A stretch of 64,000 nucleotides of DNA, taken from contig CP055307.1 of assembly GCA_013374835.1 (NCBI GenBank), forward strand, positions 542,963-606,962, in the 5' to 3' direction. The translations under genes and the position numbers were made by a program. This DNA is from Candidatus Woesebacteria bacterium (GTDB lineage: Bacteria; Patescibacteriota; Microgenomatia; UBA8517). Each line of letters starts with the position of its first letter. Within the stretch, counting starts at the first letter, position 1. Below the pieces are notes generated by a model. The model was not told the origin of the DNA, searched no databases, and worked only from the letters and a program-made list of their open reading frames with translations. Positions 10,856 to 57,406 of this stretch are shown piece after piece.

Positions 10856-10856
10856 G

Positions 10857-14427: not shown

Positions 14428-14447
14428 ATTGATTATAATAGTAGAAA

Positions 14448-19420: not shown

Positions 19421-21015
19421 AAAAGTACTATTTATTACTAATAATTTTATTTGGTTCTTTGCTCAGACTTTGGAGAATATGGGAGTTTCCCGCTTTAAAT
19501 GCGGATGAGGCCGCTTTGGGGTATAACGCTTATTCTATTTTGGAAACCGCAAGAGACGAGCATGGAAATATTCTGCCAATTCATTTTCAGTCGTTTAATG
19601 ATTTTAAGCCCGGACTTTATGTTTATTTGACGACCCCATTTGTTTATTTATTTGGACTAAATGTTTGGGTTGTTAGAATGCCCGGGGTTTTTGCTGGTAT
19701 TGTTTCGATATACCTTGTTTATAGGCTTATAAAAGATTTGTTTAAGGATGAAAGTTTTGCTTTAGCAGCTTCATTTTTGTTGGCTTTCTCACCTTGGCAT
19801 ATCCATTTTTCAAGGGGGGCGTGGGAAGCAAATGTGGCTACGCTACTAATCGTTTTTGGAGTTTTCAGTTTTTATAAGGCTGGACAAAGAAGAATATATT
19901 ATTATTTATCGATTTTTTCTTTTGTAATGTCTTTGTATGCTTATCATGCTGCAAGAATTATTTCGCCGCTTCTTTTTTTTGGGTTAACTTATTTTAATAG
20001 AAAACAGGTTAAAGAATCTTTCAAGCATTTTTTCGCTGCCGGGTTATTTGGATTTATTGTTTTTATTCCTCTTTTGGCATCTTTATTTTCAGGCGAGGCT
20101 TTAACCTCAAGGGCTTATGGCGTTGGTTTATTTTCGGATCCGGGGCCTTTTTCGCGAATAAACGAGCAGAGAGGAGAACACGGTAATTATACCGGAGTTG
20201 TTGCTAAAGCTTTTCATAATAAGCCGGTTAATTATGGCCTTGCCTTTATTTCAAACTGGCTTGAGCATTATTGGGGTGAATTTTTGTTTTTGTCTGGTGA
20301 CGAAATTCAGAGAAATCGTGTGCCGGAAACAGGTCAGCTATATATTTTTGAATCAGTTTTTATATTGGCTTCTTTTTATTTTATATTTAAGGAAAAGAAA
20401 TTTCGGTTTTTTGGATTTTTTATTTACTGGCTTTTAATCGCTCCTATTCCCGCTGCGCTTACTTTTCAGTCACCGCACGCGCTTCGTGCTTTGAATATGG
20501 TGATACCAATAACTCTTTTTTCATCATATGGCTTAGTTAGACTTTATAAAATGTTTTCAAAGTATAGGGTGGTTTTTGTAGCACTTTTTTTATGGGGTAT
20601 TTCGAGATATTTGATTATGTATTGGATGCATATGGCAAAGGAGTATCCATTTTCATCGCAATATGGTATGGCTGAACTTGTTACTTTTTTGGACAAAGAA
20701 GCAAAAGATGTTAAGAGAATAGTTATTACCGATCGCTATGATCAGCCTTATATTCTTTTTCTATTTTATTTGAAATACCCGCCCGATAAATTTCAGGAGG
20801 AGCATGAGCTTTCGAGACGGGATAAATACGGCTTTTCCACTGTTCGGTCATTTGACAAATATATATTTATGAATATCAATTATGATATTGTTCAGCCTGC
20901 TTATCCCGGATCGCTTATAATTGGTACAGATGGGGAGATTCCTGATCATGCGAATATTGTTAAGAAGATCTATTTTCCAAGTGGAGAAGTAGCTTTTGAG
21001 ATAGTTGCAAACTAA
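19417..21015 (+). CDS. ArnT/PMT_2-like GT-C glycosyltransferase, paralog 6 of 6
   Basis: NADEAALGYNAYSILETARDEHGNILPIHFQSFNDFKPGLYVY...VWVVRMPGVFAG. The C-terminus ends FPSGEVAFEIVAN. Confidence 0.65.
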   Translation: MKKYYLLLIILFGSLLRLWRIWEFPALNADEAALGYNAYSILETARDEHGNILPIHFQSFNDFKPGLYVYLTTPFVYLFGLNVWVVRMPGVFAGIVSIYLVYRLIKDLFKDESFALAASFLLAFSPWHIHFSRGAWEANVATLLIVFGVFSFYKAGQRRIYYYLSIFSFVMSLYAYHAARIISPLLFFGLTYFNRKQVKESFKHFFAAGLFGFIVFIPLLASLFSGEALTSRAYGVGLFSDPGPFSRINEQRGEHGNYTGVVAKAFHNKPVNYGLAFISNWLEHYWGEFLFLSGDEIQRNRVPETGQLYIFESVFILASFYFIFKEKKFRFFGFFIYWLLIAPIPAALTFQSPHALRALNMVIPITLFSSYGLVRLYKMFSKYRVVFVALFLWGISRYLIMYWMHMAKEYPFSSQYGMAELVTFLDKEAKDVKRIVITDRYDQPYILFLFYLKYPPDKFQEEHELSRRDKYGFSTVRSFDKYIFMNINYDIVQPAYPGSLIIGTDGEIPDHANIVKKIYFPSGEVAFEIVAN

Positions 21016-21868
21016 TATGTGCAATTTAAGTGTGGTTTATGTTACTAGGAATGAAGAGGAAAATATTGGCGATTCTTTAGCTTCTCTATATGATATTGCG
21101 GATGAGATTATTGTTTTTGATGAGAACAGTGCAGATCGAACGCGTGAGATTGCAAAGAAATATGGTGCAAAGGTTTACAAGGTTCCTCATGAAATAAATT
21201 TTCATAAAACGAAAAGAAAAGCACTTTCCAAAGCAACTTGCAAATGGATACTTCAGCTTGATGCGGATGAAAGATTAAGCAGCGAGCTTAGAAGTGAAAT
21301 TGTTGAGGTTATAAATTTAAGCGATGCGGATATCAGAAGACGCGTTTTTCCTGAAGATAGAAAGAAACTTTTTTTAAGACATCAAAAAATTCTCGGATAT
21401 CAAAAGTCAGATGGCAGAGAGATAGCTGCCTTTTTCATACCCAGAAGAAATTATTTTTTGGGTAAGCCGCTTCGTTTTGGCGGCGCTTATCCTGATGGAG
21501 TAATCAGACTTGTCAAAAGGGGAAAGGCTATATTTCCTGCAAAACATGTACACGAACAAATTGATATAGACGGAGGTGTTTCTTGGCTTTTTAACGATTT
21601 GGAGCACTTTGATTCGCCTTCTTTAAAAAGATACTTGATGCGTCTTAATAGATATACAGATTTACACGCCGTTTCGCTTAAGAAACGTAAAGCTCCGAGA
21701 AATTTTGTTTATTTGTTTTACTACTCCTTTCTAAAAGCCTTTCTTGTTTTTCTGTCGCTTTACATAAGGCATAAAGGGTTTAAGGATGGGATTAGAGGTT
21801 TTTTGTGGTCTTTCTTTAGCGCTTCGCATTATACAATTTCATATTTTAAATACTGGAATATGAATTAG
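21005..21868 (+). CDS. Glycosyltransferase family 2. Same subfamily as the truncated CDS at 1-551.
   Basis: LSVVYVTRNEEENIGDSL...IIVFDENSADRT...ILQLDADERL (DxD). The likely start is the ATG at 21017. Confidence 0.75.
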   Translation: MQTNMCNLSVVYVTRNEEENIGDSLASLYDIADEIIVFDENSADRTREIAKKYGAKVYKVPHEINFHKTKRKALSKATCKWILQLDADERLSSELRSEIVEVINLSDADIRRRVFPEDRKKLFLRHQKILGYQKSDGREIAAFFIPRRNYFLGKPLRFGGAYPDGVIRLVKRGKAIFPAKHVHEQIDIDGGVSWLFNDLEHFDSPSLKRYLMRLNRYTDLHAVSLKKRKAPRNFVYLFYYSFLKAFLVFLSLYIRHKGFKDGIRGFLWSFFSASHYTISYFKYWNMN

Positions 21869-22644: not shown

Positions 22645-23760
22645 ATGTTAAAGGTTGCAATTGATAACGGTGCTTTAGAGGAGGGGCATCGTGTTCGTGG
22701 AATCGGATTTTACAGTAGGAATTTGGTAGAAGGCTTGAGTTTGTTAAAGAGCCAGGTAAGGGTGGATGTTTTTTCATTTTTTTCAGAACCATCGCGTGTA
22801 AATCGGTATGATATTGCTCATTATCCTTATTATGATCTTTTTTTTAATACACTTTTGACTCCATTTAAGATACCAACTGTTGTGACGATTCATGATGTTA
22901 TCCCTTTGATTTACCCAAAGCAATATCCAAAAGGAATAAAAGGCAGCATTGCTTTTTACAAACAAAAGAAAGCTTTAAAAGCCGTTTCGGCGATTATTAC
23001 TGATACACAAACTTCAAAAAAGGATATCGTGAGATTTTTGGATGTTGAAGAGAAAAAAATAAATGTTATTTATCTTGCCGCGTCGAGAAGTTATAAAATT
23101 ATTAAGGATAGAAAAATTCTTGAATCAGTAATAAAAAAGTATGGATTACCCCAGAAGTTTATTCTTTATGTGGGAGATATAAATTACAATAAAAATTTGA
23201 TTAATTTGATCCGTGCTATACGGAAAGTTGGTTTAAAACTTGTTATTGTGGGAAAGAGCGCTTTGGATATTTCAGAAAACAATAATTTAAACGATATTCG
23301 CGGTCCACGAGATTATTTGCGGTATTATTTGGGAAAGGTTCATCCTGAAATCACCCATTTTAAAAAGTTGGCAAAGGAGTTTGAAAAGGCAGGAGTTTTA
23401 AGGCTTGGATTTATATCCAATGAAGATTTGGCGGCAATTTATAATTTGGCTACTTTTTATGTACAACCTTCTTATTATGAGGGTTTTGGTTTGCCTCCAC
23501 TTGAGGCCATGGCATCTGGATGCCCTGTGTTAATTAGTAAAACACAGGCTTTGGTTGAGGTGTGCGGGGATGCTTCTATTACTTTTGATCAGAAGCAGGG
23601 CTCACGTGACTTGGCCAATAAATTAAGCGAGATAGTAAAAGACAAAAAGCTTCAAAGAGAGCTTTCGGAAAGAGGTATTCGGCATGCTGCAAGATATTCA
23701 TGGGAAAAAGCAGCTCTTGAGACACTTGAAGTTTATAAAAAATTAGTAAAGCCAAAATGA
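22645..23760 (+). CDS. Glycosyltransferase family 4
   Basis: YYEGFGLPPLEAMASGCPVLISKTQALVEVCGDAS (EX7E region). 371 aa. Confidence 0.8.
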   Translation: MLKVAIDNGALEEGHRVRGIGFYSRNLVEGLSLLKSQVRVDVFSFFSEPSRVNRYDIAHYPYYDLFFNTLLTPFKIPTVVTIHDVIPLIYPKQYPKGIKGSIAFYKQKKALKAVSAIITDTQTSKKDIVRFLDVEEKKINVIYLAASRSYKIIKDRKILESVIKKYGLPQKFILYVGDINYNKNLINLIRAIRKVGLKLVIVGKSALDISENNNLNDIRGPRDYLRYYLGKVHPEITHFKKLAKEFEKAGVLRLGFISNEDLAAIYNLATFYVQPSYYEGFGLPPLEAMASGCPVLISKTQALVEVCGDASITFDQKQGSRDLANKLSEIVKDKKLQRELSERGIRHAARYSWEKAALETLEVYKKLVKPK

Positions 23761-24905
23761 ATAGAAATTATTCAGTTAAAATCGGTTTGGTTTATTTTTT
23801 GTGGCTTCTTTTTTTAATTGCAGGACTTTTTTTTGGCATTAATTTTATTAAGCTTGGGGAGAATTTTTTAGGTGGAGGGCTAAACAATTATCTTAAAAAT
23901 CCTTTTGTTTGGGCTTGGGCCAATTTCGACGGAGAGCATTATTTGGCTATTGCAAGAGAGGGGTATAGGCCATTGAGATATTTTTATTTTCCGGTTTATC
24001 CAAAAATTATCGGATTTTTGGCTTCTTTGACCGGGCAAAATGAACTAATGGCTTATTTGTTTTCCGGTTTATTTGTATCGAACGTTTTTTCGTTGTTGAG
24101 TATAATTTTTTTTTGGAAGCTTCTTAGAGTTGATTATAAGAAAAAGTTTTCTTTTGGCGTGCTTGTGATTTTTTTGTTTTTTCCCACATCGTTTTATCTA
24201 GTGAGTGTATATACTGAATCTCTCTTTTTGTTTTTTGTTTTGATTTGTTTTTATTTCGCCAGAAAGCGCAGGTGGTTTTGGGCATCTTTATTAGCGTCGT
24301 TTGCGGGAGCAACACGCTTGGTCGGATTTTCGCTTTTTTTTGCTTTGATGGTCGAATGGTGGTTAGTAGCCAAAAAGCAGGATAAAAAAGATTTTAAAGG
24401 TCTTTTATCTATTTTATTTTTAGCACCTTTGGGTTTGGTTTTTTATATGTATTATTTAGAAAAAAGTACCGGTGATTTTTTGATTTTTTTAAATACTGTT
24501 GAGATTTTTGGGGAGCAGAGATCGTCAAGTTTTGTTATTCTGCCTCAGGTTTTTTATAGATATCTATTTAAGATTATCCCGAATTTAACGCTTTATCCGC
24601 CTTATGTGTTTCGCGTATTTTTAGAGCTTTTTATTGGGCTTATTTTTTTAGGGCTTTTGATATATTCGTTTGTTAAATTAAGGCTAAGTTATAGTGTTTA
24701 TTTTTTGTTTACATATATTACCCCGACATTATCGGGAAGTTTTTCGTCTTTTCCAAGATATGTTTTAGTTATCTTCCCGGCGTTTATAACGCTTGGTGTG
24801 TTTTTTGAAAAGAGAACTTTTATTAAGAAATTATACTTATTTATATCGGCTTTTTTGCTTTTTTTTTCCAGCGCACTTTTTTTTAGTGGATATTTTGTAT
24901 CATGA
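23757..24905 (+). CDS. Polytopic membrane protein, PIG-V/GT-C-like mannosyltransferase candidate
   Basis: 382 aa, multi-TM. The N-terminal loop NFDGEHYLAIAREGYRP resembles the WD(A/S)EH(F/Y)L.IA..GY signature I recall for GPI mannosyltransferase-II (PIG-V) family proteins. Confidence 0.4.
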   Translation: MNRNYSVKIGLVYFLWLLFLIAGLFFGINFIKLGENFLGGGLNNYLKNPFVWAWANFDGEHYLAIAREGYRPLRYFYFPVYPKIIGFLASLTGQNELMAYLFSGLFVSNVFSLLSIIFFWKLLRVDYKKKFSFGVLVIFLFFPTSFYLVSVYTESLFLFFVLICFYFARKRRWFWASLLASFAGATRLVGFSLFFALMVEWWLVAKKQDKKDFKGLLSILFLAPLGLVFYMYYLEKSTGDFLIFLNTVEIFGEQRSSSFVILPQVFYRYLFKIIPNLTLYPPYVFRVFLELFIGLIFLGLLIYSFVKLRLSYSVYFLFTYITPTLSGSFSSFPRYVLVIFPAFITLGVFFEKRTFIKKLYLFISAFLLFFSSALFFSGYFVS

Positions 24906-26155
24906 TCGAGATGATTAAAACTCTAAGAAAAAATACTTTATTTTCCGGAGGTATAGTGATGGTTGTTGGGAGTATGAGTATAAATGCTATTAATTATTTA
25001 TATCATCTTGTTATGGGAAGAGCTTTGGGGCCAAGCTCGTATTCGGTATTAGCAAGCGTTTTCTCACTTTATTATATGATTGCGATAATTCCTCAGTCAG
25101 CAAGCGTATCTATAGTAAAATTTGTTTCTGAGACAAAGGATAAAAAAGATTTATCAATTTTGTACTCAAGTTTGTATAAATTTATCAATATATTGGCATT
25201 AGTTTTGGCTTTTTTTATAATATTTTTTTCTCCTTTGATTACAAAATTTCTTCATTTTGACAGTTTTTTATTGATTCCCCTTTTAGCTCCAATAACTTAT
25301 TTCAGCTTAGGCACCCTCCTTAATCAATCTGTAGTACAAGGGCTTCTTAGGTTTAAGGAAGTGGTTTCTATTAATTTGGTTGCTGCTTTGGGTAAGCTTT
25401 TTCTGGGGCTTTTGTTTGTAATTTTGGGTTTTTCTGCCGGTGGTGCTGTTTTGGGTTTAGCTATTGCTACGTTTATAACCTTTTTTTATTCAAGGCGCTT
25501 GATATCTGTACGGGTAAACGTTGTGTCAGAAAGGCAAATACTTTCTGATTTTTTTAAATTTTCTGTTCCAGCTCTTTTTCAAGCTTTATCTTTTACTTTT
25601 ATTTTTACTGCCGATCTTATCTTAGTTAAACATTTTTTCTCCGGCTATGATGCCGGTCTTTATGCAGCGCTTTCGACATTGGGTAAGATAATATTTTTTG
25701 CTTCAAGTCCGATTGCTATGGTTATGTTTCCTGCGGTTTCGGGTAGACGGGCAAGAGGAGAGAGTTATAGGAAAGTTTTTTATATAACTTTTTTTGCTAC
25801 TTTTTTAATTGCTGGAGGTATTGTGTCTTTTTATTATTTTTTTCCTGAGTTTGCAATCAGAGTTTTATATGGAAGCAGTTATCTAGCCGCATCTACTTAT
25901 CTTTTTTGGATGGGTGGATTTATCGCGATTTATACTTTAAACTATTTTTTGGTAAATTTTTTGCTTTCTGTGGGGAAGGTAAAAGTTGTAACAGTTCCTT
26001 TATTGTCAAGTGTTTTACAAATTATTGCAATTAGTTTGTGGCACGAGAGCCTTTTGGTGGTGATTCAGATATCTTTGGCTATTATGATTTTTATGATGAT
26101 TTTACTTGTATTATACTTAGCTAGTTATCAATTAAAAGTTTATGGGAAGAAATAG
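24902..26155 (+). CDS. Wzx-like oligosaccharide/lipid-linked sugar flippase (MOP superfamily), copy A
   Basis: 417 aa with about 12 TM helices. The N-terminal RALGPSSYSVLASVFSLYY pattern is typical of the polysaccharide biosynthesis (Wzx) family. It is a paralog of 55419-56672. Confidence 0.55.
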   Translation: MIEMIKTLRKNTLFSGGIVMVVGSMSINAINYLYHLVMGRALGPSSYSVLASVFSLYYMIAIIPQSASVSIVKFVSETKDKKDLSILYSSLYKFINILALVLAFFIIFFSPLITKFLHFDSFLLIPLLAPITYFSLGTLLNQSVVQGLLRFKEVVSINLVAALGKLFLGLLFVILGFSAGGAVLGLAIATFITFFYSRRLISVRVNVVSERQILSDFFKFSVPALFQALSFTFIFTADLILVKHFFSGYDAGLYAALSTLGKIIFFASSPIAMVMFPAVSGRRARGESYRKVFYITFFATFLIAGGIVSFYYFFPEFAIRVLYGSSYLAASTYLFWMGGFIAIYTLNYFLVNFLLSVGKVKVVTVPLLSSVLQIIAISLWHESLLVVIQISLAIMIFMMILLVLYLASYQLKVYGKK

Positions 26156-26894
26156 AAAATTGCTTTTATCGATAATTGTGCCTGCTTATAAGCAGGAAAA
26201 GACTATAAAAAAAGATCTTGAACGAATGATTTCGGTTTTTGAAGAGGGACTTGGCAAAACTATAGATTTTGAGGTAATAGTTGTGGTTGACGGGAAAGTA
26301 GATAAAACGGAGCAAGAAGCAAAAAAGGTAAAAGATGGCCGGATAAGAATAATTAGCTACGAGCAAAATCGGGGTAAAGGGTATGCTGTTCGAATGGGAA
26401 TGAAGTCTGCGCATGGGGAGCTTATTTCATTTCTTGATGCAGGGATGGATATAAGTCCCAAGAGCCTTTTGATGCTTATGGCGCATTTTACTTGGTATGA
26501 GGCAGATATAATAGTAGGGTCTAAGAGACATCCCGTTTCGCGCGTAAATTACCCATTTAAGAGGAAGCTATTAAGCTTGGGGTATCATTTACTGGTTAGA
26601 GTGTTTTTTGGACTTAATCTGTCGGATACACAAAGCGGCATTAAAATTTTTAGGCGTGAGGTTGTTGAAAAAATAATCGATAAGCTTTTGGTTAAGCGGT
26701 ATGCAATGGATATTGAGATGCTTGCTGTTGCCAGACGATTTGGGTTCAGAAGAATTTATGAAGCACCCATTGAAGTGACTTTTAATAAAAGTACTAGTGC
26801 AATAAATTGGCATACAATTTATAAGATGCTTTGGGATACTTTGGCTGTTTTTTATAGACTTAAAATTCTTAGGTATTATGATAAAGCCAGATAG
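26142..26894 (+). CDS. GT2, Dpm1/GtrB-like polyprenol-phosphate sugar synthase candidate
   Basis: LLSIIVPAYKQEKTI, VIVVVDGKVDKT, NRGKGYAVRMGMKSAHGELISFLDAGMD (DxD) and GSKRHP. It sits immediately after the flippase. Confidence 0.65.
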   Translation: MGRNRKLLLSIIVPAYKQEKTIKKDLERMISVFEEGLGKTIDFEVIVVVDGKVDKTEQEAKKVKDGRIRIISYEQNRGKGYAVRMGMKSAHGELISFLDAGMDISPKSLLMLMAHFTWYEADIIVGSKRHPVSRVNYPFKRKLLSLGYHLLVRVFFGLNLSDTQSGIKIFRREVVEKIIDKLLVKRYAMDIEMLAVARRFGFRRIYEAPIEVTFNKSTSAINWHTIYKMLWDTLAVFYRLKILRYYDKAR

Positions 26895-29298
26895 ATTCCC
26901 AATATTTGTCTTTCTTTTTGTTTTAGCCTCGTGGTCTTTAACTGTATTTTTTTGGTTTAACAATTTTGATTTGGCTTATATTCACGGTTATATAGGGATC
27001 GAGAATACTTTACACAACGTTAATTTAAAAAATCTCATTAGGGGGCACCAAATAATCAATTTTTTTGTTTATTTGATTTTCGGCCTTAGGCCATGGGGCT
27101 ATTATTTGGTTGCAAATATTTTGCATGCTTTGGTAGCTGTCTTTGGTTATTTGGTATTTAAAAATTTCTTTAAGGATAGGTTTTATAGTTTGCTTTTAGC
27201 CCTTTTGGTGTTTGTAAACTTTACTTATTCTAATGTACTTTTTGAAGGTACTTTTAATCAATATTATTCCTTTATCTTGCTTACTTTTTTGATTTCTGTT
27301 TATTTGTTACAAAAAAGAATATGTAGGTTCTTCGGTCTTCCAATTTTGATGATACTAGGCTTTTTGTTTAGAGAGACTTCTTATGTACTTTTCGGCTTAG
27401 TTTTTTTTTACGTAGCTATTTTTAGCAAAGACAAGGATAGCTTTTTGAAAGATATTAGATATTTGGCTCCTCTTTTTGTAGTTTTATCGATTTATACTTA
27501 TTTTCGCATTTTTCATCTGGGGGATCTTTTTTCCGATCTTACTGATGATGCAGTACAGGCAAGGATTTCCTTTATACAAAGTGGGAATTATAAAGACTAC
27601 TTTGTAACTTCTTTAAATAATTTTTCGAGGATGGTTGGTGAACAGACGCTTTCTTACCCCGTGCTTTATAAGATGCGCGATTTTTTAGTTTTATTTGCCT
27701 TAAAAGCAAAGATCTATCAACTTGCTTCTTTTAAATATTTTATTCCGCTTATTGGTTTTTTGATTTTTTTGATTTTTTTTGTAATTGTGGTCTTAGTTTT
27801 TATCGAGAGATTGAAGATTAAAAAAGATAAAAGAAGAATTGTTTATTTTGGTATTTTATGGTTTATTCTTTTGAACTTTTTTATGAGTTTGGTTTTGCCC
27901 TTTCCTGAATATGTATGGAACAGAAACCTCGATTTTATAAGAGTTCTGGCAAGATACAATTATTATCAGATTTTTGGATTAGTTCTTTTTGTGGGTGCTT
28001 TGTTTTATGAATGGAGGAATAAAAAATTTTTGAGAATAACTCTTTTGTTCTTGATTGCTGTTAATTTTTTGGCCATTCAGTATAATGCATATAAGATTTA
28101 TTTGATTAAACATAGGCCTGCGAGATATTTTTTCACTCAAGTTTTTGAAAAATATCCAGATTTCCCCAGAAAAACAGTAATTTACTATAATTTCTTTCAG
28201 GTTAATAACCTTCGTGACTGGATTTATGATTTATCTTATATTTTTAGAAAGATTAGATATCCGAATTCAGAGTTTTTATTTGAATCTTCGCTAGCTGAGG
28301 TGCAAAAGAAATATTTAAGTTCAGAATACGAACTATCTGGGATTTACGCTTTTGATTTAGATGAGAAAGGATATTTCGTTGATAAAACGGATATGGTCAG
28401 AAAATATTTTGTTGATTTGAAAGAAGTTGATCTAGGCGATCAACCAGAAATATCTTTAAGTTCTCACAATCTTTTTTCAAATGGTAGGTACATGCTTAGT
28501 TTCGAAGCCAGATTTTTGAAAAAGAAGAGCAATTTAGTCTGCAATGAAACACTTTCTAGATATTCTAATCAAAGAAGGAGATTTTTAGAGAAAGCCTCTT
28601 TAGAAGTGGGAAGTAAATACGGCGGAAATACGAATATATTCCCTTATGTGGGCAAGAGTAAGCTTATTGATAATGGCTATTATAAAGATAGTATGTGGCA
28701 GGCAGAACCTGGAAATAATCCCGATGAGCTTGTATTGGATTTGGGTGAGGAGCGGGTGATTAATGGTTTTTCTTGGATATCTAATGGTTTGAATGCCAAC
28801 CCGAACGTTTATGAAATAAAGGTTTCAATAGATGGCTCTAAATATAAAACTGTTTTTGAGAGCTATGAGACAAAAGAAGACTCGCGGATTGATTATTTTG
28901 AGCCAATTTACGCACGATATATAATGATGGATACTAAATCGACTTTGCTTGGCCAACCGGTCATTTTTTATGAGATAGAAGCTAATCAGTATTCTGAAGC
29001 TATCAGGGATAGGTATCAACGTTTCGATAAACTTTTGGAGGATGCCTTTTTAAAATCGTGTCCCTTGGACTTTAACTGGGGGAAAATAAGGATAACTACA
29101 AGTTCTGGTACGACAAAAGAGTTTCCGATCATGTTTGATAAAGACAGAGTTTGGAAAAAATATTCTTTTGAAATAGTAAATTATGAACCATTTATGGCAA
29201 CAAGAACTTTGCTTGAGGATAAATTAAGAACCTTAAGTGTGTTTTTGGTTAATGATGGTATGGATTATGAATTTAGAAATTTTAAGTTAGTTCCATGA
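26878..29298 (+). CDS. Membrane protein with an N-terminal polytopic domain and a C-terminal F5/8 type C (discoidin)-like carbohydrate-binding domain
   Basis: 806 aa, with about 420 aa of TM helices. The C-terminal VINGFSWISNGLNANPNVYEIKVSIDGSKYKTVFESYE...YFEPIYARYIMMD resembles discoidin/F5_F8_type_C. Confidence 0.45.
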   Translation: MIKPDRFPIFVFLFVLASWSLTVFFWFNNFDLAYIHGYIGIENTLHNVNLKNLIRGHQIINFFVYLIFGLRPWGYYLVANILHALVAVFGYLVFKNFFKDRFYSLLLALLVFVNFTYSNVLFEGTFNQYYSFILLTFLISVYLLQKRICRFFGLPILMILGFLFRETSYVLFGLVFFYVAIFSKDKDSFLKDIRYLAPLFVVLSIYTYFRIFHLGDLFSDLTDDAVQARISFIQSGNYKDYFVTSLNNFSRMVGEQTLSYPVLYKMRDFLVLFALKAKIYQLASFKYFIPLIGFLIFLIFFVIVVLVFIERLKIKKDKRRIVYFGILWFILLNFFMSLVLPFPEYVWNRNLDFIRVLARYNYYQIFGLVLFVGALFYEWRNKKFLRITLLFLIAVNFLAIQYNAYKIYLIKHRPARYFFTQVFEKYPDFPRKTVIYYNFFQVNNLRDWIYDLSYIFRKIRYPNSEFLFESSLAEVQKKYLSSEYELSGIYAFDLDEKGYFVDKTDMVRKYFVDLKEVDLGDQPEISLSSHNLFSNGRYMLSFEARFLKKKSNLVCNETLSRYSNQRRRFLEKASLEVGSKYGGNTNIFPYVGKSKLIDNGYYKDSMWQAEPGNNPDELVLDLGEERVINGFSWISNGLNANPNVYEIKVSIDGSKYKTVFESYETKEDSRIDYFEPIYARYIMMDTKSTLLGQPVIFYEIEANQYSEAIRDRYQRFDKLLEDAFLKSCPLDFNWGKIRITTSSGTTKEFPIMFDKDRVWKKYSFEIVNYEPFMATRTLLEDKLRTLSVFLVNDGMDYEFRNFKLVP

Positions 29299-30422
29299 GA
29301 ATTCTTGTTCTTTCTTGGCGAGATCTTAGACATCCTTCGGCCGGAGGTGCCGAATATGTAATGCATGAACATATGAAGGGGTGGGTGAAAGCCGGACACA
29401 GCGTTACGCATTTTTCCTCTTATTTAAAAGGAAAGCCTCGAGAGGAAGAAATTGATGGGGTAAGGATAGTTAGGCGTGGCTATCAATATATCGGGGTTCA
29501 GGCGGCTGCTTTTTTATATTATTTGAAAAATAGGAAAAGTTACGATTTTTTGGTAGATGAATTTCACGGAATACCGTTTTTCACTCCGCTTTTTAGCAGG
29601 AAACCAAAGATTGCGGTCATACATGAGACAGCGCGCAATGTGTGGTTTATGAACCCTCTGCCTTTTCCTATCAGCATTGTTGTTGGGATAATGGGATTTT
29701 TGCTTGAACCACTCTTTTTTTTGTTTTATAGGAATACCTCTTTTATGACTGTTTCTAATTCAACTAAAAGGAGTCTTTGCTTAATGGGTATCCCCGAAAA
29801 GAATATAACGATTATTTATAATGCTGTTGATGTGGATGTGTCAAAATATAAAAATTATTTGAAAGAATGTGAGTATACGATTAGTTATTTAGGTGCTTTA
29901 AGTAAAGATAAAGGTGTTGAAGATGCTGTTAAGTGCTTTTTTTATCTTAAAAAGAAAGGGATAGAGAGTTTTTGGGTAATAGGTAAGGCTGTTACTAAAG
30001 AATATGAGCGTAAGCTGCGAGTTTTAGTTAAAAAATATGGTTTGGTCAAGAATGTTAAGTTTTGGGGTTATGTAGATGAAGATAAAAAATATGAACTGCT
30101 TAGGCGTTGCCATATATTAATCAACCCATCTATGCGTGAGGGCTGGGGTCTTGTAAATGTTGAGGCCAATATAATGGGTACTCCAGTTGTGGCTTATAAA
30201 TCTCCGGGTCTTATTGATTCTATTACAGTAGACTCGGGAGTTTTGGTTGATGAAAATACACCTAGTGCTTTGGCACAAGCTGTTTTTGAATTGCTTCGGG
30301 ATAGGGATAGATACGAGAGGCTTTGCCGTGGTGCAAAAGAATGGAGCAAAAAGTTTAATTGGGAAGAGAGCAGGAGTCAAAGTCTTAGACTTATTGAAAA
30401 CATCTATGAAAAAGAGCAGTAA
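29295..30422 (+). CDS. Glycosyltransferase family 4
   Basis: REGWGLVNVEANIMGTPVVAYKSPGLIDSI. 375 aa. Confidence 0.8.
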   Translation: MRILVLSWRDLRHPSAGGAEYVMHEHMKGWVKAGHSVTHFSSYLKGKPREEEIDGVRIVRRGYQYIGVQAAAFLYYLKNRKSYDFLVDEFHGIPFFTPLFSRKPKIAVIHETARNVWFMNPLPFPISIVVGIMGFLLEPLFFLFYRNTSFMTVSNSTKRSLCLMGIPEKNITIIYNAVDVDVSKYKNYLKECEYTISYLGALSKDKGVEDAVKCFFYLKKKGIESFWVIGKAVTKEYERKLRVLVKKYGLVKNVKFWGYVDEDKKYELLRRCHILINPSMREGWGLVNVEANIMGTPVVAYKSPGLIDSITVDSGVLVDENTPSALAQAVFELLRDRDRYERLCRGAKEWSKKFNWEESRSQSLRLIENIYEKEQ

Positions 30423-32705: not shown

Positions 32706-33644
32706 TTAGTTGATCTCCGCTTCTACAAATTTTTGAGTGTCAACTTTAGATTTTGAAAAGATAATAAGCTCTGATACAAGACCTGTTGAAATTAGTTGTA
32801 CCCCGATAATCATAAGAAGCATCCCCAGATATAACAGTGGGTGTCTATTCTGGATCGTACCTGTTGTGAATCTCAGATAGCTTATGTATAAGCCTATTAT
32901 AAATCCGCTTGAAAATGAAATTGCCCCTAAGCTTCCGAAGAAATGACCGGGACGTGCGTTGTATGCGGTTAAAAATAACACTGTGACCAAATCCAAACCT
33001 CCCTTGATAAACCTGCTCCAGCCATATTTTGATTTACCATATTTTCGAGGGCGATGATTAACTGGAATTTCAGCAATTTTATAGTTTTGTTTGGCCACAA
33101 AAATAGGGATAAAGCGATAAAGCTCTCCATAGAGGTTTAACGATTTAGCTACTGATGTTTTGTAGGCTTTGAATCCGCAATTCATATCGTGGATTTTTAC
33201 GCCAGTTAGGATTCTTGTCATAAAGTTTATGATACGCGAAGGTAAGACTTTGGTAGCGGGATCACGGCGTTTTTGCTTCCAGCCGGAAACTAGATCATAC
33301 CCTTCTTCTAGTTTTTGCAAAAAGCGCCCAATTTCCTTGGGGTTATCTTGTAAATCTGCGTCCATGGTAATAATAATCTCACCTCTAGCTTTTTCAAATC
33401 CAACCGAAAGGGCAACCGATTTGCCAAAATTGCCCCGTAGCTTAATTCCTTGCACTGCTTTATCTTTGCCCGCGATATCAGAGATTATTTCAAAAGTTTT
33501 GTCGTTAGAACCATCGTCTATTAAAATTATTTCATAAGATTTGTTAATCTTTTTGAGTTCGTTCACTAGCTCAGTATATAATTTGACGATAGATTTCTCC
33601 TCATCTTTGGCAGGGATGATGACGCTTATTTCCGGATTTTTCAT
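32706..33644 (-). CDS. GtrB/ArnC/Dpm1-like polyprenol-phosphate glycosyltransferase (GT2 with C-terminal TM anchor)
   Basis: ISVIIPAKDEEKSI, ILIDDGSNDKT, NFGKSVALSVGFEKARGEIIITMDADLQDNPKEI, YDLVSGWKQKRRD and two C-terminal TM helices form the classic GtrB architecture. Confidence 0.8.
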   Translation of the reverse strand: MKNPEISVIIPAKDEEKSIVKLYTELVNELKKINKSYEIILIDDGSNDKTFEIISDIAGKDKAVQGIKLRGNFGKSVALSVGFEKARGEIIITMDADLQDNPKEIGRFLQKLEEGYDLVSGWKQKRRDPATKVLPSRIINFMTRILTGVKIHDMNCGFKAYKTSVAKSLNLYGELYRFIPIFVAKQNYKIAEIPVNHRPRKYGKSKYGWSRFIKGGLDLVTVLFLTAYNARPGHFFGSLGAISFSSGFIIGLYISYLRFTTGTIQNRHPLLYLGMLLMIIGVQLISTGLVSELIIFSKSKVDTQKFVEAEIN

Positions 33645-39781: not shown

Positions 39782-40441
39782 TGTAGGAAGGTTTTTGGCA
39801 TATCGGTGGGGGATAAAAAGATAGTTGCTTAAATTTATCCTATCGCCATAAATTTTGATATTTCTGAACCCGCTTTCTTTTAGTTGTTCCTTAATGTTGT
39901 TTGGTGTGTAGTAGCGTATATGACCCACATTAAATTCTTTTGACGGGAGTTTGGTTGAGTACTCAATAAACGGATTTTTTCCAAATAGCAGCAATATTCT
40001 TCTGCCAAGTGACGCTAAGTTTGGTGTGGTGAGTAAGAGTTTGCCGTCTTTTTTAAGGACCTTGTGGATTTTAAGTAGAAATCGATCTGTATCAAAAATG
40101 TGTTCTATTATATCACCTGCAATTACTACATTAAAATAATTATTGTATTTTGGAGGGAGACTTTCTATATCTGAGAGCTTGCAGGGCAGTCCTTTTTTTT
40201 TGCATTCTTTGATTGCTTTTTTGCTAATATCGATACCAAGAACTTGTCCGAATTTTGTATATTTTTTGATCAGTTCACCATCGTTACAACCTATGTCTAG
40301 TATTTTTATTCTTTTATCCTTTTTATTGTATCTTTTTAGTTCTTCTAAAAAAAAGTTGATTTTTTCCTGATAATAGCCCCTTTTGGACGATTGCATTAGC
40401 AGTTTTTGATTATAGAAGTTATGTATTTTTGATTTTTTCAT
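39746..40441 (-). CDS. Class I SAM-dependent methyltransferase
   Basis: ILDIGCNDGEL (motif I), LGIDIS, FNVVIAGDIIEHI, VLKKDGKLLLTTPN. It overlaps the 36614 gene convergently by 36 nt. Confidence 0.85.
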   Translation of the reverse strand: MKKSKIHNFYNQKLLMQSSKRGYYQEKINFFLEELKRYNKKDKRIKILDIGCNDGELIKKYTKFGQVLGIDISKKAIKECKKKGLPCKLSDIESLPPKYNNYFNVVIAGDIIEHIFDTDRFLLKIHKVLKKDGKLLLTTPNLASLGRRILLLFGKNPFIEYSTKLPSKEFNVGHIRYYTPNNIKEQLKESGFRNIKIYGDRINLSNYLFIPHRYAKNLPTLSRNIMVCCQK

Positions 40442-41364
40442 TAATTTTTGATACCTATTTTTTCTTTTATTATATACTCAGGCCGTTTTTTAACCTCTTC
40501 ATATATTCTTGCTAAATATTCGCCTATTATTCCTAATGTGATTAGCTGTACACCCCCAATAAGAAGTACTGTTGAGATGGTTGATGCCCATCCTATTATT
40601 CCGATTTGAAAGAATAATCTGAGGATAAAAATTATTAGGATAAATATGAATGCAAGAGCGGCAAAGATCATTCCCAGAAAGCTTGAGATTCTCAGTGGTA
40701 TATATGAAAAGGAAAGAAGCCCGTCAAACGCCAGATTAAAAAGTCTTCTCAGAGAAGCGGGTTTCCCCTTGTATCTTTTGTCTCTTTCATAGAGAAGTCC
40801 GGTTTGACGAAAGCCTGTCCATGCACGGAGACCGCTAAAATATTTATTCCTTTCGGGCATTTCTGTCAGAATATCTACAACCTTTCTGTTAAGAAGAGAG
40901 AATGTCCCTGAATCAAGGGGCATTTTGTAATATGAAATACTGTTTAGAAGAATATAATATACTTTAAAGAGAATCCTTCTAAAAATATCTTCCTTTCTTT
41001 TGGTTTTTATTCCGTAGACCACCTCGAACCCTTCCTGTGCTTTCTTGAACATTTTTAGTATTACTTCGGGTGGATCTTGAAGGTCGGCATCTAGGACTGT
41101 TACCCATTTCCCTTTTGAGTTAGCGAGCCCTGCGTGGATTGCTGCCATGTGGCCGAAATTTCTTGAAAAGGAGATTAGCTTTACTTTATTGTCATTTTTA
41201 TTAATTTTTTTGATTACAATTTCACTTTTATCTTCGCTTCCGTCGTTAATAAAAATCATTTCGTGGTAGGGTGATATTTTATTCAATACTTTTTTGAGTC
41301 TTTTGTAGAGAGGCATTAGATTTTCTTCTTCGTTGAAAAAGGGGATTACAGCAGATATTTCCAT
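40441..41364 (-). CDS. GtrB/ArnC/Dpm1-like polyprenol-phosphate glycosyltransferase (GT2 with C-terminal TM anchor)
   Basis: ISAVIPFFNEEENL, IFINDGSEDKS, NFGHMAAIHAGLANSKGKWVTVLDADLQDPPEVI, YGIKTKRKE and two C-terminal TM helices. Confidence 0.8.
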   Translation of the reverse strand: MEISAVIPFFNEEENLMPLYKRLKKVLNKISPYHEMIFINDGSEDKSEIVIKKINKNDNKVKLISFSRNFGHMAAIHAGLANSKGKWVTVLDADLQDPPEVILKMFKKAQEGFEVVYGIKTKRKEDIFRRILFKVYYILLNSISYYKMPLDSGTFSLLNRKVVDILTEMPERNKYFSGLRAWTGFRQTGLLYERDKRYKGKPASLRRLFNLAFDGLLSFSYIPLRISSFLGMIFAALAFIFILIIFILRLFFQIGIIGWASTISTVLLIGGVQLITLGIIGEYLARIYEEVKKRPEYIIKEKIGIKN

Positions 41365-45858: not shown

Positions 45859-45859
45859 C

Positions 45860-52956: not shown

Positions 52957-55434
52957 ATGATAAGGAATAATTTTAAGCTTATTTTATTTATTCTTTTAAT
53001 CTTTGTTTTTTTTAGGCCTTTTTTTACATTTTCAGATCTTTCTTGGGGAGATGCTCCTTATTATTTTCACGGTGAGTTTGCCAATCTTTTAAACGGATTT
53101 TCCGTCTGGAGTAGTGAGGGAAATAATTTTGGTGGTATAAACGCTCTCTTATGGCTTTATCCTATTAATTTTTTGATAGGATTTTTGGGCAGTGTTTTAA
53201 GACTGGATCATCTAGTTATAGTTAGGATAGTTTTTTATTTTCCCAGTTTGATAATGGCCGTAACTACTTCTTATCTTTTGGCAAAAGAACTTGGATTAAA
53301 AAAAGGCGCGTGGGCGGCGGCTTTATTGTATGTTTTTAATTCCTATTACCTTCTTCTGGTTGATGGAGGACAGGTGGGGGTAGTTCTTTCTTACGGTTTT
53401 TTACCTTTAGTTGTACTTTCTTTGATTAAGTTAAAGTTTTCTTTGGCAAATTATGTTTTTTCTACATTGATACTTAATTTTGCAGTGCTTATTGACCCCA
53501 GAATTGCCTTTGTTGGTGTTTTGGGAACTTTTATATATAGAGTATTAGAGTTTGTACGGAATGGTGGCAGAGAAATTAGAGGATTTTTGGCCGCGCTTTT
53601 TTTGGTTTGTGCCAGCGTTTTATTAATGAATATGTTTTGGATTTATCCCCTTTTTGCTCTGGGCGGAATAGAAGTGGGATCTGAGGTTTCCCGTTTAAAT
53701 TTGTTTTCTTTAGTTAATGGATTTACGTTATTTCAACCACACTGGCCGGTTAATATATTCGGAGAGGTAAGGCCGCCACTTTTTTATTTTTTGGTTTTGC
53801 CTATTTTTATATGGTCTGGGTTATTGGTTGATAAAAGAGGAAAGTTGTATACATTTTTATTGTTAAATTTAATATTTATATTTATTTTAAAGGGTGAAAA
53901 TGCTCCCTTTGGACAATTATATAAGTTTATTCTTAGCCTTCCTTTTGGTTTTGTTTTTCGCGATTCGAGTAAGTTTTTTCCGGGTGTTATTTTGTTTTCC
54001 TCCTTGTCGCTTTCGTTTTCGGTTTCGAAGAGGAAGAACAATTTTTTTTCGATTGCAGTTTTTTTGGCGGTAATTGCACCGCTTTTGCCTGGGTTGACAA
54101 AATTTAATTTTGTGCTTTCCAGACGTGTTCATGATAAAGAATTTTACAGGATAGGCGAGTATTTATCAGATACCTCAGGCCGGGCATTGTGGATTCCCGA
54201 GAGATATCCTATCCATTTTAACAGCGATGAAAGCCATGCTCTGGATGGCAGACTTTTAACTGAATATCCTTTGTTTGCTATTAATAATGTTGGCTCTCAT
54301 GATAAGCTCAATTACTTACACAACAGCGATTCCATTTCTCTTCTCAAACGTTTGGGGGTGACTTATCTTGTTTTATCTCAAGATCATAGAAGCATAGCCG
54401 TGGGAGATGAGGAGATTTTAGAGAGGGAAATGCTTATTAAAAGTATTAAGGAAACAGATGGTATTACCAGAGTTGATGGCTTTGAAAGACTTTATCAAAT
54501 TTTAGGTGCGCGACCTTATATTTATACAACCGACTCTTTAGCTATCTATTCTGATTATCTTGAAGGGATATATGAAAATGAAAACAGCGCAATAGCCTTT
54601 TTATCCGATGGTACTTTTCGAATCGAACCCCTTTTCAAAGCTCCTTATGGAAGTATGCTTATTAATGCTTCCACTACTGATGTTGCAATGAATCTTCTTA
54701 TTGATGAGATTTACGAAATCCCTCAAAGTGAGTGGGCTAAATACGACTCCTCCCGTAGACTCGAATGGCAGTATCAGCTTTTGACTCGCGGACTTGCTTT
54801 AAAATCTTTGGATTATAAAAAAGGCGTAGCTTTTTCTGATAGAAGAGGAGAGCGTGTTGTTTTAAGAGAGGATGCTGGGCAAAATGTGTTTGCTCTTAGA
54901 GCTGCAGGTAGCAAGGAGGCTCGGCTAGTCATTAATACAGAAAGCGGCCAAGAATTTATTGAATTTGATGGGGAAGCCGGTTTTAGTTGGTATGTTTTTA
55001 CACTTGATAAGCCTTATGCAGAACTTGTTAATGATGCAGGGCTTGTTGTTTTGAACGTATATTCTTTTGTAGAAAAATCGCGGTTTGATGAAGCTCTTGA
55101 GAAAGCTTCCAGCATGATTTCTAATTATAAGTCTTTGGAAAAAGACGGTTGGTATAAGGTGGATTACAAAAGGGAAATCCCTACTTACTTTCGTGTTGGG
55201 AAAACAGCGGGAAACTATTTGATTGTAGCCGAAAACTACCACAAGGACTGGTTGATTAACGATTCGGTGCATTTCTCTGTTTATGGGGGATTTAACGGGT
55301 TTCTGCTAGAGCCTGAGACTGATGCTGATTTAGTTTTTCGCGGCCAAAGGCATTTGATTTACGGTACAGCTATGTCTTTTGCAGCATATTTAGTCTGTTT
55401 AGTTGCTATTATTAAATTATGCAAAAGAGGTTAA
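52957..55434 (+). CDS. Large polytopic membrane protein with a YfhO-like C-terminal beta domain (GT-C-like candidate)
   Basis: 825 aa. About 380 aa of TM helices, a soluble domain, and a C-terminal YHKDWLINDSVHFSVYGGFNGFLLEPETDADLVFRGQ followed by a final TM helix. Confidence 0.45.
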   Translation: MIRNNFKLILFILLIFVFFRPFFTFSDLSWGDAPYYFHGEFANLLNGFSVWSSEGNNFGGINALLWLYPINFLIGFLGSVLRLDHLVIVRIVFYFPSLIMAVTTSYLLAKELGLKKGAWAAALLYVFNSYYLLLVDGGQVGVVLSYGFLPLVVLSLIKLKFSLANYVFSTLILNFAVLIDPRIAFVGVLGTFIYRVLEFVRNGGREIRGFLAALFLVCASVLLMNMFWIYPLFALGGIEVGSEVSRLNLFSLVNGFTLFQPHWPVNIFGEVRPPLFYFLVLPIFIWSGLLVDKRGKLYTFLLLNLIFIFILKGENAPFGQLYKFILSLPFGFVFRDSSKFFPGVILFSSLSLSFSVSKRKNNFFSIAVFLAVIAPLLPGLTKFNFVLSRRVHDKEFYRIGEYLSDTSGRALWIPERYPIHFNSDESHALDGRLLTEYPLFAINNVGSHDKLNYLHNSDSISLLKRLGVTYLVLSQDHRSIAVGDEEILEREMLIKSIKETDGITRVDGFERLYQILGARPYIYTTDSLAIYSDYLEGIYENENSAIAFLSDGTFRIEPLFKAPYGSMLINASTTDVAMNLLIDEIYEIPQSEWAKYDSSRRLEWQYQLLTRGLALKSLDYKKGVAFSDRRGERVVLREDAGQNVFALRAAGSKEARLVINTESGQEFIEFDGEAGFSWYVFTLDKPYAELVNDAGLVVLNVYSFVEKSRFDEALEKASSMISNYKSLEKDGWYKVDYKREIPTYFRVGKTAGNYLIVAENYHKDWLINDSVHFSVYGGFNGFLLEPETDADLVFRGQRHLIYGTAMSFAAYLVCLVAIIKLCKRG

Positions 55435-56672: not shown

Positions 56673-57406
56673 AGAAAAAAAAGGTAATAGTTGTCATGCC
56701 GGCCTATAATGCTGAAAAGACACTTAAAAAGACTTATAAAGATATTGATAAGAATCTTGTAAATGAAATAATTCTGGTTGATGATGGATCTAAAGATAAA
56801 ACTGTAGAAGTTGCTAAAAAGATGGGCATAACGACTTTTTCTCATTATAAAAATTTGGGATATGGAGGAAACCAGAAGACGTGTTATTGGGAGGCTTTGA
56901 AAAGAAAGCCTGATGTGGTTGTAATGATACACCCTGATTACCAGTATGACGCTACTTTGATAGAACAATTGATAAATCCTATACTTATGGGAAGATATGA
57001 TTATATGTTCGGATCGCGCATAAGGACTAGAAAAGAGGCTTTAGCTGGCGGGATGCCATATCATAAATATATTTTTAATAGATTTTATACAATAATTGCT
57101 AATTTGGTCATGGGAGTAAATTTTACAGAACATATGTCGGGTATGAGAGCTTATTCTGCAAAGACCCTGAGGAGAATACCGTTTCAAAGATTTTCGAATG
57201 ATTTTGTGTTTGATCAACAGTTTACTGTTTCGGCAGTTGCCAAAGGGCTTAGGGTAGGTGAAATAGCTATACCGGTACGTTATTATGAGGAAAGTTCCTC
57301 TATTAAGTTTTTCGCAGGTTTGAGATTTGGCCTTGGTTCTTTGTGGTGTTTAGCTTTGTTTATTTTTAATTCTTTGGGTATATATAAATCAAAAATATTT
57401 AAGTAA
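56669..57406 (+). CDS. GT2, Dpm1-like polyprenol-phosphate sugar synthase candidate
   Basis: VIVVMPAYNAEKTL, ILVDDGSKDKT, GYGGNQKT, and a C-terminal hydrophobic helix. It sits immediately after flippase copy B. Confidence 0.65.
   Translation: MKKKKVIVVMPAYNAEKTLKKTYKDIDKNLVNEIILVDDGSKDKTVEVAKKMGITTFSHYKNLGYGGNQKTCYWEALKRKPDVVVMIHPDYQYDATLIEQLINPILMGRYDYMFGSRIRTRKEALAGGMPYHKYIFNRFYTIIANLVMGVNFTEHMSGMRAYSAKTLRRIPFQRFSNDFVFDQQFTVSAVAKGLRVGEIAIPVRYYEESSSIKFFAGLRFGLGSLWCLALFIFNSLGIYKSKIFK

Follow-up and report, generated by a model that had tools for sequence, protein, structure and literature searches.

In Streptococcus pyogenes, GacI, a family 2 glycosyltransferase (GT2) without transmembrane (TM) segments, makes N-acetylglucosamine-phosphate-undecaprenol (GlcNAc-P-Und), GacK is a Wzx-type flippase and GacL is a GT-C glycosyltransferase (bioRxiv 10.1101/180810; PMC8035078). 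GacI, GacJ, GacK and GacL, with the Epa homologues of Enterococcus faecalis, thus bring together a TM-less GT2 that makes a polyprenyl-phosphate-linked monosaccharide, a flippase of the Wzx rather than the GtrA type, and a GT-C; the flippase step of the Gac system is itself only a hypothesis (bioRxiv 10.1101/180810; PMC8035078). We examined 64,000 nt of a metagenome-derived contig from a Candidatus Woesebacteria bacterium (hereafter the window; contig CP055307.1, assembly GCA_013374835.1, positions 542,963 to 606,962, forward strand), which contains two pairs of genes, each a Wzx-like flippase followed by a small GT2: pair A (flipA, 24902..26155, and GT2A, 26142..26894) and pair B (flipB, 55419..56672, and GT2B, 56669..57406). 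An earlier sequence-only reading had placed these four open reading frames (ORFs) at the same positions, each GT2 overlapping its flippase, as we confirmed, and had taken the pairs for two copies of one module. On the observed family assignments, synteny statistics and residue conservation, the pairs are independent, and we consider it slightly better than an even call that pair A and its GT-C neighbours make up a glycosylation system of three components, with a flippase of the Wzx type as in GacI/K/L.

Pair A and the ORF just upstream of it (23757..24905) encode, side by side, the same three protein types as Gac, a likeness by protein type. Unlike Gac, the window holds no detected GacJ/DUF2304 protein, the GT2A motif reads D-A-G-x-[DE] rather than DAD, and the genes run in the order GT-C, flippase, GT2 with overlapping frames and conserved family 4 glycosyltransferases (GT4s). 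The same three-step logic of a lipid-phosphate-sugar synthase, a flippase and a GT-C is found in the Gtr (GtrA/GtrB/Gtr*) and CsbB/GtcA/YfhO systems, and two further window GT2s (ORFs 32706 and 40441), which end in TM helices, are built like GtrB/ArnC/CsbB. Unlike Gtr, no small GtrA-family flippase was detected in the window, where the only recognisable flippases are of the MOP/PST (multidrug/oligosaccharidyl-lipid/polysaccharide superfamily, polysaccharide transport) kind. The O-antigen pentofuranose system of Citrobacter youngae (polyprenyl-phosphoribose synthase, MATE flippase and GT136) likewise has a proposed MOP-superfamily flippase and not GtrA, but its synthase is a phosphoribosyltransferase rather than a GT2 and its flippase is MATE rather than PST. 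The Agl pathway of Haloferax volcanii (AglJ; AglD/AglR/AglS; Agl15; PMC3871713), like the window, clusters GT2s resembling dolichyl-phosphate mannose synthase (DPMS), GT2 and GT4 extenders, a methyltransferase, Wzx-like flippases and GT-C proteins, with AglR and Agl15 as the proposed Wzx-like flippases (PMC3871713). It differs in being archaeal and dolichol-based and in ending in AglB, no homologue of which was seen in the window, and the window proteins score far below the AglJ cut-off.

Families and active sites of the paired proteins

All four ORFs are + strand genes, each sharing 1-17 nt with the adjoining ORFs. Both 417-aa flippases scored above the Pfam gathering scores for Polysacc_synt and Polysacc_synt_3 (flipA: PF13440 63.8 bits, PF01943 51.1 bits; flipB: PF01943 84.8 bits, second profile 64.5 bits). 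The sequence-only reading had given each of them 12 TM segments, and hydropathy gave 12 for flipA and 11 for flipB. A sequence search of the PDB returned no match at E<=1 for either protein.

The GT-A domain (PF00535) was detected in both GT2A (250 aa, 89.1 bits) and GT2B (245 aa, 70.9 bits; cut-off 23.3), and AlphaFold (AF2) models built from 28-sequence alignments showed a GT-A fold in both, with a predicted local distance difference test (pLDDT) score of 82 for GT2A and 89 for GT2B. Among known structures and sequences the best match of both proteins was the Pyrococcus furiosus DPMS (5mlz)/eukaryotic Dpm1 type, at ~20% identity. GT2A matched 5mlz at E 5e-13 as a single sequence and 1.2e-17 as a family profile, spanning residues 7-182, while GT2B matched DPMS at E 1.5e-7 with a family profile. 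When the GT2A model was compared with the PDB using Foldseek, the top 19 matches were all ArnC, DPMS or GtrB, the three solved kinds of polyprenyl-phosphate glycosyltransferase. For two other window GT2s used as controls (ORFs 61373 and 6065), the leading matches were chondroitin synthase, GalT1 and TarS/TarP, and these covered no more than the first ~100 residues of the controls. The closest solved relatives of GT2A and GT2B are polyprenyl-phosphate glycosyltransferases and not chain-extending GT2s. AglJ was the best NCBIfam match of GT2B and was also matched by GT2A, with scores of 34-73 bits against a cut-off of 325 bits. Judged by sequence, predicted fold and, most clearly for GT2A, the acceptor-phosphate residues described below, GT2A and GT2B fall with the polyprenyl-phosphate sugar synthases (DPMS, GtrB, ArnC). 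Because the flippases are MOP/PST proteins and the GT2s are of the Dpm1/GtrB kind, neither an unrelated transporter nor a chain-extending GT2 was found among the four, and the earlier naming of the 417-aa proteins as Wzx-like and of the small GT2s as Dpm1/GtrB-like holds.

Functional residues of DPMS (PMC5526996) were mapped onto GT2A and GT2B through profile alignments. In DPMS, R117, R131 and S135 bind the phosphate of dolichyl phosphate (Dol-P), and within the motif 89-DADLQ-93 Asp91 and Gln93 bind the metal and Asp89 contacts the sugar (PMC5526996). The phosphate residues are kept in GT2A, where K128, R141 and S145 align with Arg117, Arg131 and Ser135 and are invariant in 28 sequences; in GT2B, R117 is aligned and invariant, with K133 and N137 matched only by manual alignment. 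The metal motif of GT2A has the form D-x-G-x-[DE], which was observed in 74 of 80 species-level orthologues and in 118 of 120 database homologues, with an acidic residue at the position of the metal ligand Gln93; since Asp or Glu occupies this position, metal binding in GT2A may be shifted. GT2B (H88-P-D90-Y-Q92), like DPMS, keeps both metal ligands, Asp and Gln, and differs in having His as the equivalent of Asp89; the extended motif HPDYQYD was found in all 120 homologues.

The two GT2s also end differently. In GT2B a C-terminal helix (residues 214-235, mean hydrophobicity 0.58) forms the one predicted TM segment, and yeast Dpm1 has a single C-terminal TM segment as well. GT2A, unlike DPMS, has no four-helix TM domain and has Gly as the equivalent of Asp91; in the model, its helices 139-156 and 223-247 are placed as the interface helices IFH1 and IFH2 are in DPMS. 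The DxD motif and C-terminal anchor that had been suggested as a check on both GT2s were therefore found only in part, with metal ligands and one TM segment in GT2B and neither a canonical DXD nor a TM segment in GT2A. Both proteins are widely conserved. More than 6000 homologues were found for GT2A, the best 120 of which were 64-74% identical apart from two near-identical ones, and the best 120 homologues of GT2B were 63-76% identical beyond two near-identical ones.

Relationship and conservation of the two loci

Direct comparison of the pairs gave 26% identity over 270 aa for flipA and flipB (pairwise E 1e-4) and 22% for GT2A and GT2B. Within the window GT2B was only the fifth-best match of GT2A, with ORFs 32706, 6065, 61373 and 40441 all scoring higher. 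Full-length alignments among the window GT2s were limited to GT2A, GT2B and the ArnC-like 32706, which fits a shared clade and not a recent copy. Each of GT2A and GT2B had hundreds to thousands of homologues in other genomes that were closer than the two are to each other. The N-terminal motif that had been read as linking the flippases, R.LGP..(Y/F)G, is present in both but is a consensus of both whole families, and their equal length of 417 aa is a coincidence, because flippase orthologues span ~397 to 486 aa. Recurrence of the same two Pfam families is not duplication, and by these alignments pairs A and B are independent members of the same two protein families rather than a duplicated module.

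An ancient duplication of a larger block, comprising a flippase, a Glyco_tranf_2_4-type GT2 and a GT4, was also considered. The sole in-window match of GT2 57406 (57406-58242) is GT2 21005 (21005-21868), and the best in-window match of GT4 60333 (60333-61376) is GT4 22645 (22645-23760). The two flippase loci might share a very old layout of flippase, GT2 type and GT4, but at ~45 bits per match this is too weak to claim, and we did not retain it.

To compare gene order, approximate counts were taken from 80 GT2A loci in species-representative genomes (78 with an upstream gene) and 80 GT2B loci in metagenomes (67 with an upstream gene). The closest named relatives of the window proteins were Candidatus Microgenomatus, Woesebacteria, other Microgenomates and WWE3. 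Lineage labels were taken from genome record titles, and many titles reading 'uncultured Gammaproteobacteria' conflict with named Patescibacteria records and look like mislabels.

In 58 of the 78 loci, covering at least 10 named candidate lineages, the gene next upstream of the GT2A orthologue was a flipA-like ORF in the same orientation, and pair A was kept in all three distant-relative neighbourhoods that were looked up. In these three relatives the upstream genes follow the order PMT_2 genes, GT2, sometimes a short-chain dehydrogenase/reductase (SDR), GT4, usually a 380-aa PIG-V-like protein, and the Polysacc_synt flippase; downstream come the GT2A orthologue with a 14-nt flippase overlap, a variable gene, a GT4 and a DUF5667 protein. 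This overlap is documented only where gene calls existed, as overlaps taken from longest-ORF starts in relatives are unreliable. Across relatives, the median identity to the window proteins was 53% for GT2A, 32% for the less conserved flipA, and ~40% for the GT-C and the two GT4s. A synthase, a flippase and a GT-C (GT2A, flipA and ORF 23757) are thus encoded together across genomes at pair A. On this gene order, pair A is the conserved core of a predicted surface- or envelope-glycosylation locus common to many Microgenomates/WWE3 bacteria of the Candidate Phyla Radiation (CPR). Our literature search found no description of the pair-A locus in CPR bacteria.

The remaining members of the pair-A locus are all on the + strand. 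At the upstream end are a 287-aa GT2 of the PF00535/Glyco_tranf_2_4 type (21005..21868), found at the same upstream position in many of the 80 relatives, and a 371-aa GT4 (22645..23760) with orthologues in 53 relatives at a median identity of 41%, both assigned by Pfam. ORF 23757 encodes a 382-aa PIG-V/Mannosyl_trans2-like polytopic protein with ~9 TM segments and overlaps flipA by 4 nt. It has no Pfam match of its own and is a candidate GT-C, and the candidate extracytoplasmic transferase of pair A, because an orthologue that carries PF04188 (Mannosyl_trans2; locus L004) matches it from end to end at 49% identity; in at least 22 relatives the gene that precedes flipA encodes a PIG-V-like GT-C. 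Directly downstream of GT2A, ORF 26878 (26878..29298) encodes an 806-aa membrane protein with a GT-C-like N-terminal half, which matches PMT_2 weakly (E 1.1e-3, residues 63-204), and an F5/8 type C (discoidin) domain (PF00754, 43.5 bits). This slot is variable in relatives, being occupied by a 136-, 635- or ~675-aa protein or left empty; in the window its product is possibly a second transferase or an acceptor-binding partner. A carbohydrate-binding module of this kind on a transferase may select the acceptor. An 889-aa discoidin protein (7768-10437 of locus L008) adjoins the GT2B orthologue in a complete Woesebacteria genome. The locus continues with a 375-aa GT4 (29295..30422; Pfam), which immediately follows GT2A in 30 relatives.

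Two further observations concern the edges of this locus. In ~7 relatives (L026, L027, L033, L038, L040, L046 and L060) the flippase is bracketed by two DPMS-like GT2s, the second of which is absent from the window; it is TM-less, ~227-258 aa long, carries a canonical QDADLEY motif and lies just upstream of the flipA orthologue. In L002, L004 and L006 the pair-A locus is bordered on its downstream side by a small single-TM DUF5667-like protein. Its window counterpart (52316-52810, +) is 22 kb away from pair A and lies just ahead of the flipB locus, which suggests that the region between was inserted or expanded in this lineage.

Pair B gave a different picture. A flippase was found directly upstream of the GT2B orthologue in none of the 67 metagenome loci and anywhere within ±8 kb in only 2 of 80, and no adjacent flippase was seen in four contexts of GT2B relatives at 63-75% identity (one at 72%). 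The neighbours of three such relatives include a PMT_2 or PTPS_related GT-C, a discoidin-domain protein or another GT2. Large polytopic proteins made up 35% of the immediate neighbours of GT2B against a 17% background, and the association of GT2B with GT-C-type neighbours is conserved. A synthase, a flippase and a GT-C were not found together across genomes at pair B.

The view from the flippase side was similar. flipB is poorly conserved, with 12 homologues at E<=1e-10, the next best after that of the 90%-identical sister lineage being 38% identical. Downstream of flipB and GT2B the + strand encodes a 278-aa GT2 without predicted TM segments (57406..58242), a methyltransferase (58244-59050), a 435-aa GT-C-like protein (59047-60354; weak or orthologue-type support), a GT4 (60333-61376), a GT2 (61373-62209) and a PMT_2 GT-C (62206-63627), of which the methyltransferase, GT4, second GT2 and PMT_2 protein were assigned by Pfam. 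Upstream, also on the + strand, is an 825-aa polytopic protein without a Pfam family (52957..55434), with orthologues (29-32% identity) directly upstream of the flipB relatives in L171 and L172. In all three flipB relatives (L171, L172 and L173) an orthologue of GT2 57406 (45-52% identity) directly follows the flippase and GT2B is missing. The window order of 825-aa protein, flippase, GT2 57406, methyltransferase, GT-C-like protein, GT4, GT2 and PMT_2, minus GT2B, is fully kept in L171 and largely in L172, where the slot of GT2 61373 holds a GT2 21005-like gene. The junction of flipB and GT2B recurs only in a 96%-identical sister lineage. Because flipB relatives keep the surrounding order without GT2B, and the junction is confined to the sister lineage, GT2B appears to have been interposed between flipB and its usual partner GT2 57406. 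In the genomes compared, pair B is not a conserved unit, its two genes being adjacent in this lineage alone. We roughly estimate a chance of ~8% that a given flippase precedes a DPMS/GtrB-type GT2 (4 among ~48 other genes), so that a single adjacency such as that of flipB and GT2B is unremarkable.

Glycan genes across the window

The window (G+C ~35%) contains ~49 genes tiled with almost no gaps, nearly all of them glycan-related; 44 of the 49 are on the + strand, and the GC skew is positive in every 4-kb bin (0.16-0.30). Four GT2s are of the polyprenyl-phosphate type, all below the curated NCBIfam equivalog cut-offs. Besides GT2A and GT2B these are a 312-aa ArnC/GtrB-type protein (32706..33644, - strand; NCBIfam ArnC, 190 bits over positions 7-297 of 316, cut-off 529) and a 307-aa PgfS/CsbB-type protein (40441..41364, - strand; NCBIfam PgfS, 254.7 bits over positions 1-304 of 308, cut-off 500). 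Both match at full length and have C-terminal TM segments, two in the latter, in line with the sequence-only reading, which called them membrane-anchored; they are candidates for the third and fourth polyprenyl-phosphate sugar synthases. With flipA and flipB as the only MOP/PST flippases, the census agrees with the earlier count of about four synthases and two flippases.

The ~19 GT-C transferases counted previously are better taken as an upper bound. Significant PMT/PMT_2/YfhO matches were obtained for 11 proteins, ~5 further candidates are supported by weak matches, orthologues or in-window paralogues only (26878, 59047, 23757, 36614 and 52957), and 3 ORFs are merely polytopic and without a family (3881, 10857 and 44117). 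The other genes include 5 GT4s and 8 GT2s, giving 13 glycosyltransferases without a polyprenyl-phosphate-type signature, together with 7 methyltransferases, 1 carbamoyltransferase and 1 SDR. Six tandem PMT/PMT_2 paralogues (9170-21015, +; 532-576 aa, mutual identity 28-36%) precede the pair-A locus, with a family-less 435-aa polytopic ORF and a 195-aa ORF with 4 TM segments interspersed and a more distant member at 7746-9188; relatives have 2-5 PMT/PMT_2 genes at the same site. Another gene (48922-52296, -) encodes a 1124-aa protein with ~19 hydrophobic segments. Its residues 534-613 match the last part of the YfhO model and residues 732-859 match PMT_2; it resembles two GT-C modules fused together. 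The same gene (1126 aa) is present in the sister lineage (L174). Two small membrane ORFs (45697-46072, +), one a 53-aa DUF5989 protein (52 bits) and the other of 70 aa without a significant family, are the sole genes in the one sizeable intergenic gap. They precede the carbamoyltransferase (46077-47780), a 69%-identical relative of which also occurs near a flipB relative (L172).

No phosphoglycosyltransferase (PGT), Wzy_C, Wzz or LCP domain was found in any window ORF of at least 150 aa (no match to PF00953, PF02397, PF04932 or PF02706), in line with the earlier statement that the cluster does not fit Wzy-dependent assembly. This is weak evidence, because Wzy sequences diverge strongly and several of the polytopic ORFs match no family. 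A GacJ/DUF2304 helper or a GtrA-type flippase was likewise not found among the family-less window ORFs or in the 136-aa gene after GT2A in one relative, and no AglB/PglB-type oligosaccharyltransferase (STT3) matched in the window.

A candidate three-component system and its alternatives

In the mechanism that we favour, the sugar, lipid, acceptor and the substrate moved by each flippase are what we infer. GT2A, as a TM-less DPMS/GacI-like enzyme, would transfer one sugar from a nucleotide sugar to polyprenyl phosphate at the cytoplasmic face, and the translationally coupled flipA would move the lipid-linked sugar outward. A GT-C, either the PIG-V-like 23757, the discoidin-bearing 26878 (for the latter, probably) or both, would then pass the sugar to an extracytoplasmic acceptor, while the flanking conserved GT2 and two GT4s would probably serve either to make the glycan that accepts the sugar or to lengthen the lipid-linked sugar. 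The earlier proposal that several lipid-linked monosaccharides are made, flipped and added one by one is plausible for pair A in its synthase, flippase and GT-C logic, but it ignores the 13 other glycosyltransferases of the window (5 GT4 and 8 GT2). Some cytoplasmic assembly of a lipid-linked oligosaccharide is likely, because of these 13 enzymes and because two GT4s and one GT2 belong to the pair-A core.

Several points weigh against the three-component mechanism. Flippases of the Wzx/PST type classically move oligosaccharides linked to undecaprenyl diphosphate (Und-PP), and the two GT4s and further GT2, as conserved in the pair-A locus as the flippase, fit oligosaccharide assembly before flipping. 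No GacJ/DUF2304-like partner was found in the window. The canonical DXD is not kept in GT2A (D99-A-G101-M-D103, against D89-A-D91-L-Q93 in DPMS), with Gly101 invariant, and its conserved, aromatic- and basic-rich C-terminal helix is only weakly amphipathic (muH 0.17) and is not a TM segment. The counts from the GT2A and GT2B scans are approximate, because loci entered in order of their similarity to the query and the metagenome contigs were often short, and the position of GT2B could be functional in this lineage rather than incidental. Monosaccharide flipping by GacK and AglR has itself been inferred only from mutant phenotypes (bioRxiv 10.1101/180810; PMC3871713).

The genomic data cannot separate the three-component mechanism, which we put a little above even, from two others, the first of them unlikely and the second slightly more so. 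In the first, GT2A would not make a donor that is used outside but would start a glycan on polyprenyl monophosphate, much as AglJ primes one on dolichyl phosphate. The enzymes at 21005, 22645 and 29295 would extend this glycan in the cytoplasm, flipA would export it, in the manner proposed for Agl15, and a GT-C would pass the whole chain at once to an acceptor on a protein or the wall. Precisely these protein types, a methyltransferase among them, make up the Haloferax pathway (PMC3871713), and in relatives the GT2 and the two GT4s are found together with flipA and GT2A. Such a route would also accommodate the lack of any priming PGT (PF00953, PF02397) among the ~49 genes in 64 kb or in the contexts looked up, and the AglJ matches of GT2B (its best) and GT2A, but PGTs are often encoded away from the cluster, the AglJ scores of 34-73 bits fall far under the 325-bit cut-off, and no AglB/PglB-type match was found in the window. 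To our knowledge, polyprenyl-monophosphate-linked oligosaccharide carriers are not established in bacteria. It is more doubtful still that the pair-A locus is, as a whole, a bacterial counterpart of the archaeal Agl pathway, in which a D-x-G-x-D/E GT2A primes on polyprenyl monophosphate, GT2 and GT4 enzymes extend, a Wzx-like flippase exports, and the GT-C arsenal delivers to surface proteins or the wall. If true, this would be the main envelope-glycan route of a large uncultivated clade, working without a PGT-primed diphosphate carrier.

The second alternative gives flipA and flipB the classical Wzx role of flipping Und-PP-oligosaccharides that are primed by an unlinked PGT and built by the GT4s and the soluble GT2s. 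The DPMS-like GT2s would then supply side-branch donors flipped by another route, and the adjacency of flippase and GT2A would reflect shared regulation. O-antigen and teichoic-acid exporters belong to PF01943 and PF13440, flipB weakly matches TuaB, its relatives adjoin a non-DPMS-like GT2 and a GT4, and the 13 glycosyltransferases without the polyprenyl-phosphate signature would find a use. The gap in conservation between flipA and GT2A is also typical of a substrate-specific Wzx. The junction of flippase and GT2A nevertheless persists over deep divergence, the ~7 relatives with a flippase bracketed by two DPMS-like GT2s are hard to fit to this role, and no PGT, Wzy_C, Wzz or LCP domain accompanies the flippases in the window. 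As to the other route, the title of a 2026 paper (PMC12992685) proposes that a DPMS can flip its own product, but GT2A has no TM domain able to do so.

Very improbable, finally, is the original reading of a duplicated flippase and Dpm1-like GT2 module, each copy flipping its own lipid-linked monosaccharide: the pairs do share two families, gene order, overlapping frames and equal flippase length, and their flippase family profiles are homologous over 372 columns (18% identity in profile-profile comparison), but this is set against the low identities, the fifth-place rank of GT2B, the many closer relatives in other genomes, the absence of the pair-B adjacency from every relative below 96% identity, from both the GT2B and the flipB side, and the chance expectation for a single adjacency.

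The three-component type of system is already known, and the earlier reading was right at the level of families and plausible at the level of the system only for pair A. Two features are modestly unusual, namely the clade-wide, translationally coupled Wzx-like flippase and DPMS-like GT2, and the D-x-G-x-[DE] variant of the metal site. Most Patescibacteria/CPR have yet to be cultivated, and very little is known of their surface chemistry. A gene set common to a large sample of Microgenomates/WWE3 genomes, in which a GT-C and a Wzx-like flippase are joined by flanking GT4s and by a DPMS-like GT2 whose metal motif is unusual, offers concrete, clonable targets for learning what lipid-linked sugars such bacteria produce. 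From the side of comparative genomics, the set also strengthens the still unproven idea that flippases of the Wzx type can serve polyprenyl-monophosphate sugars.

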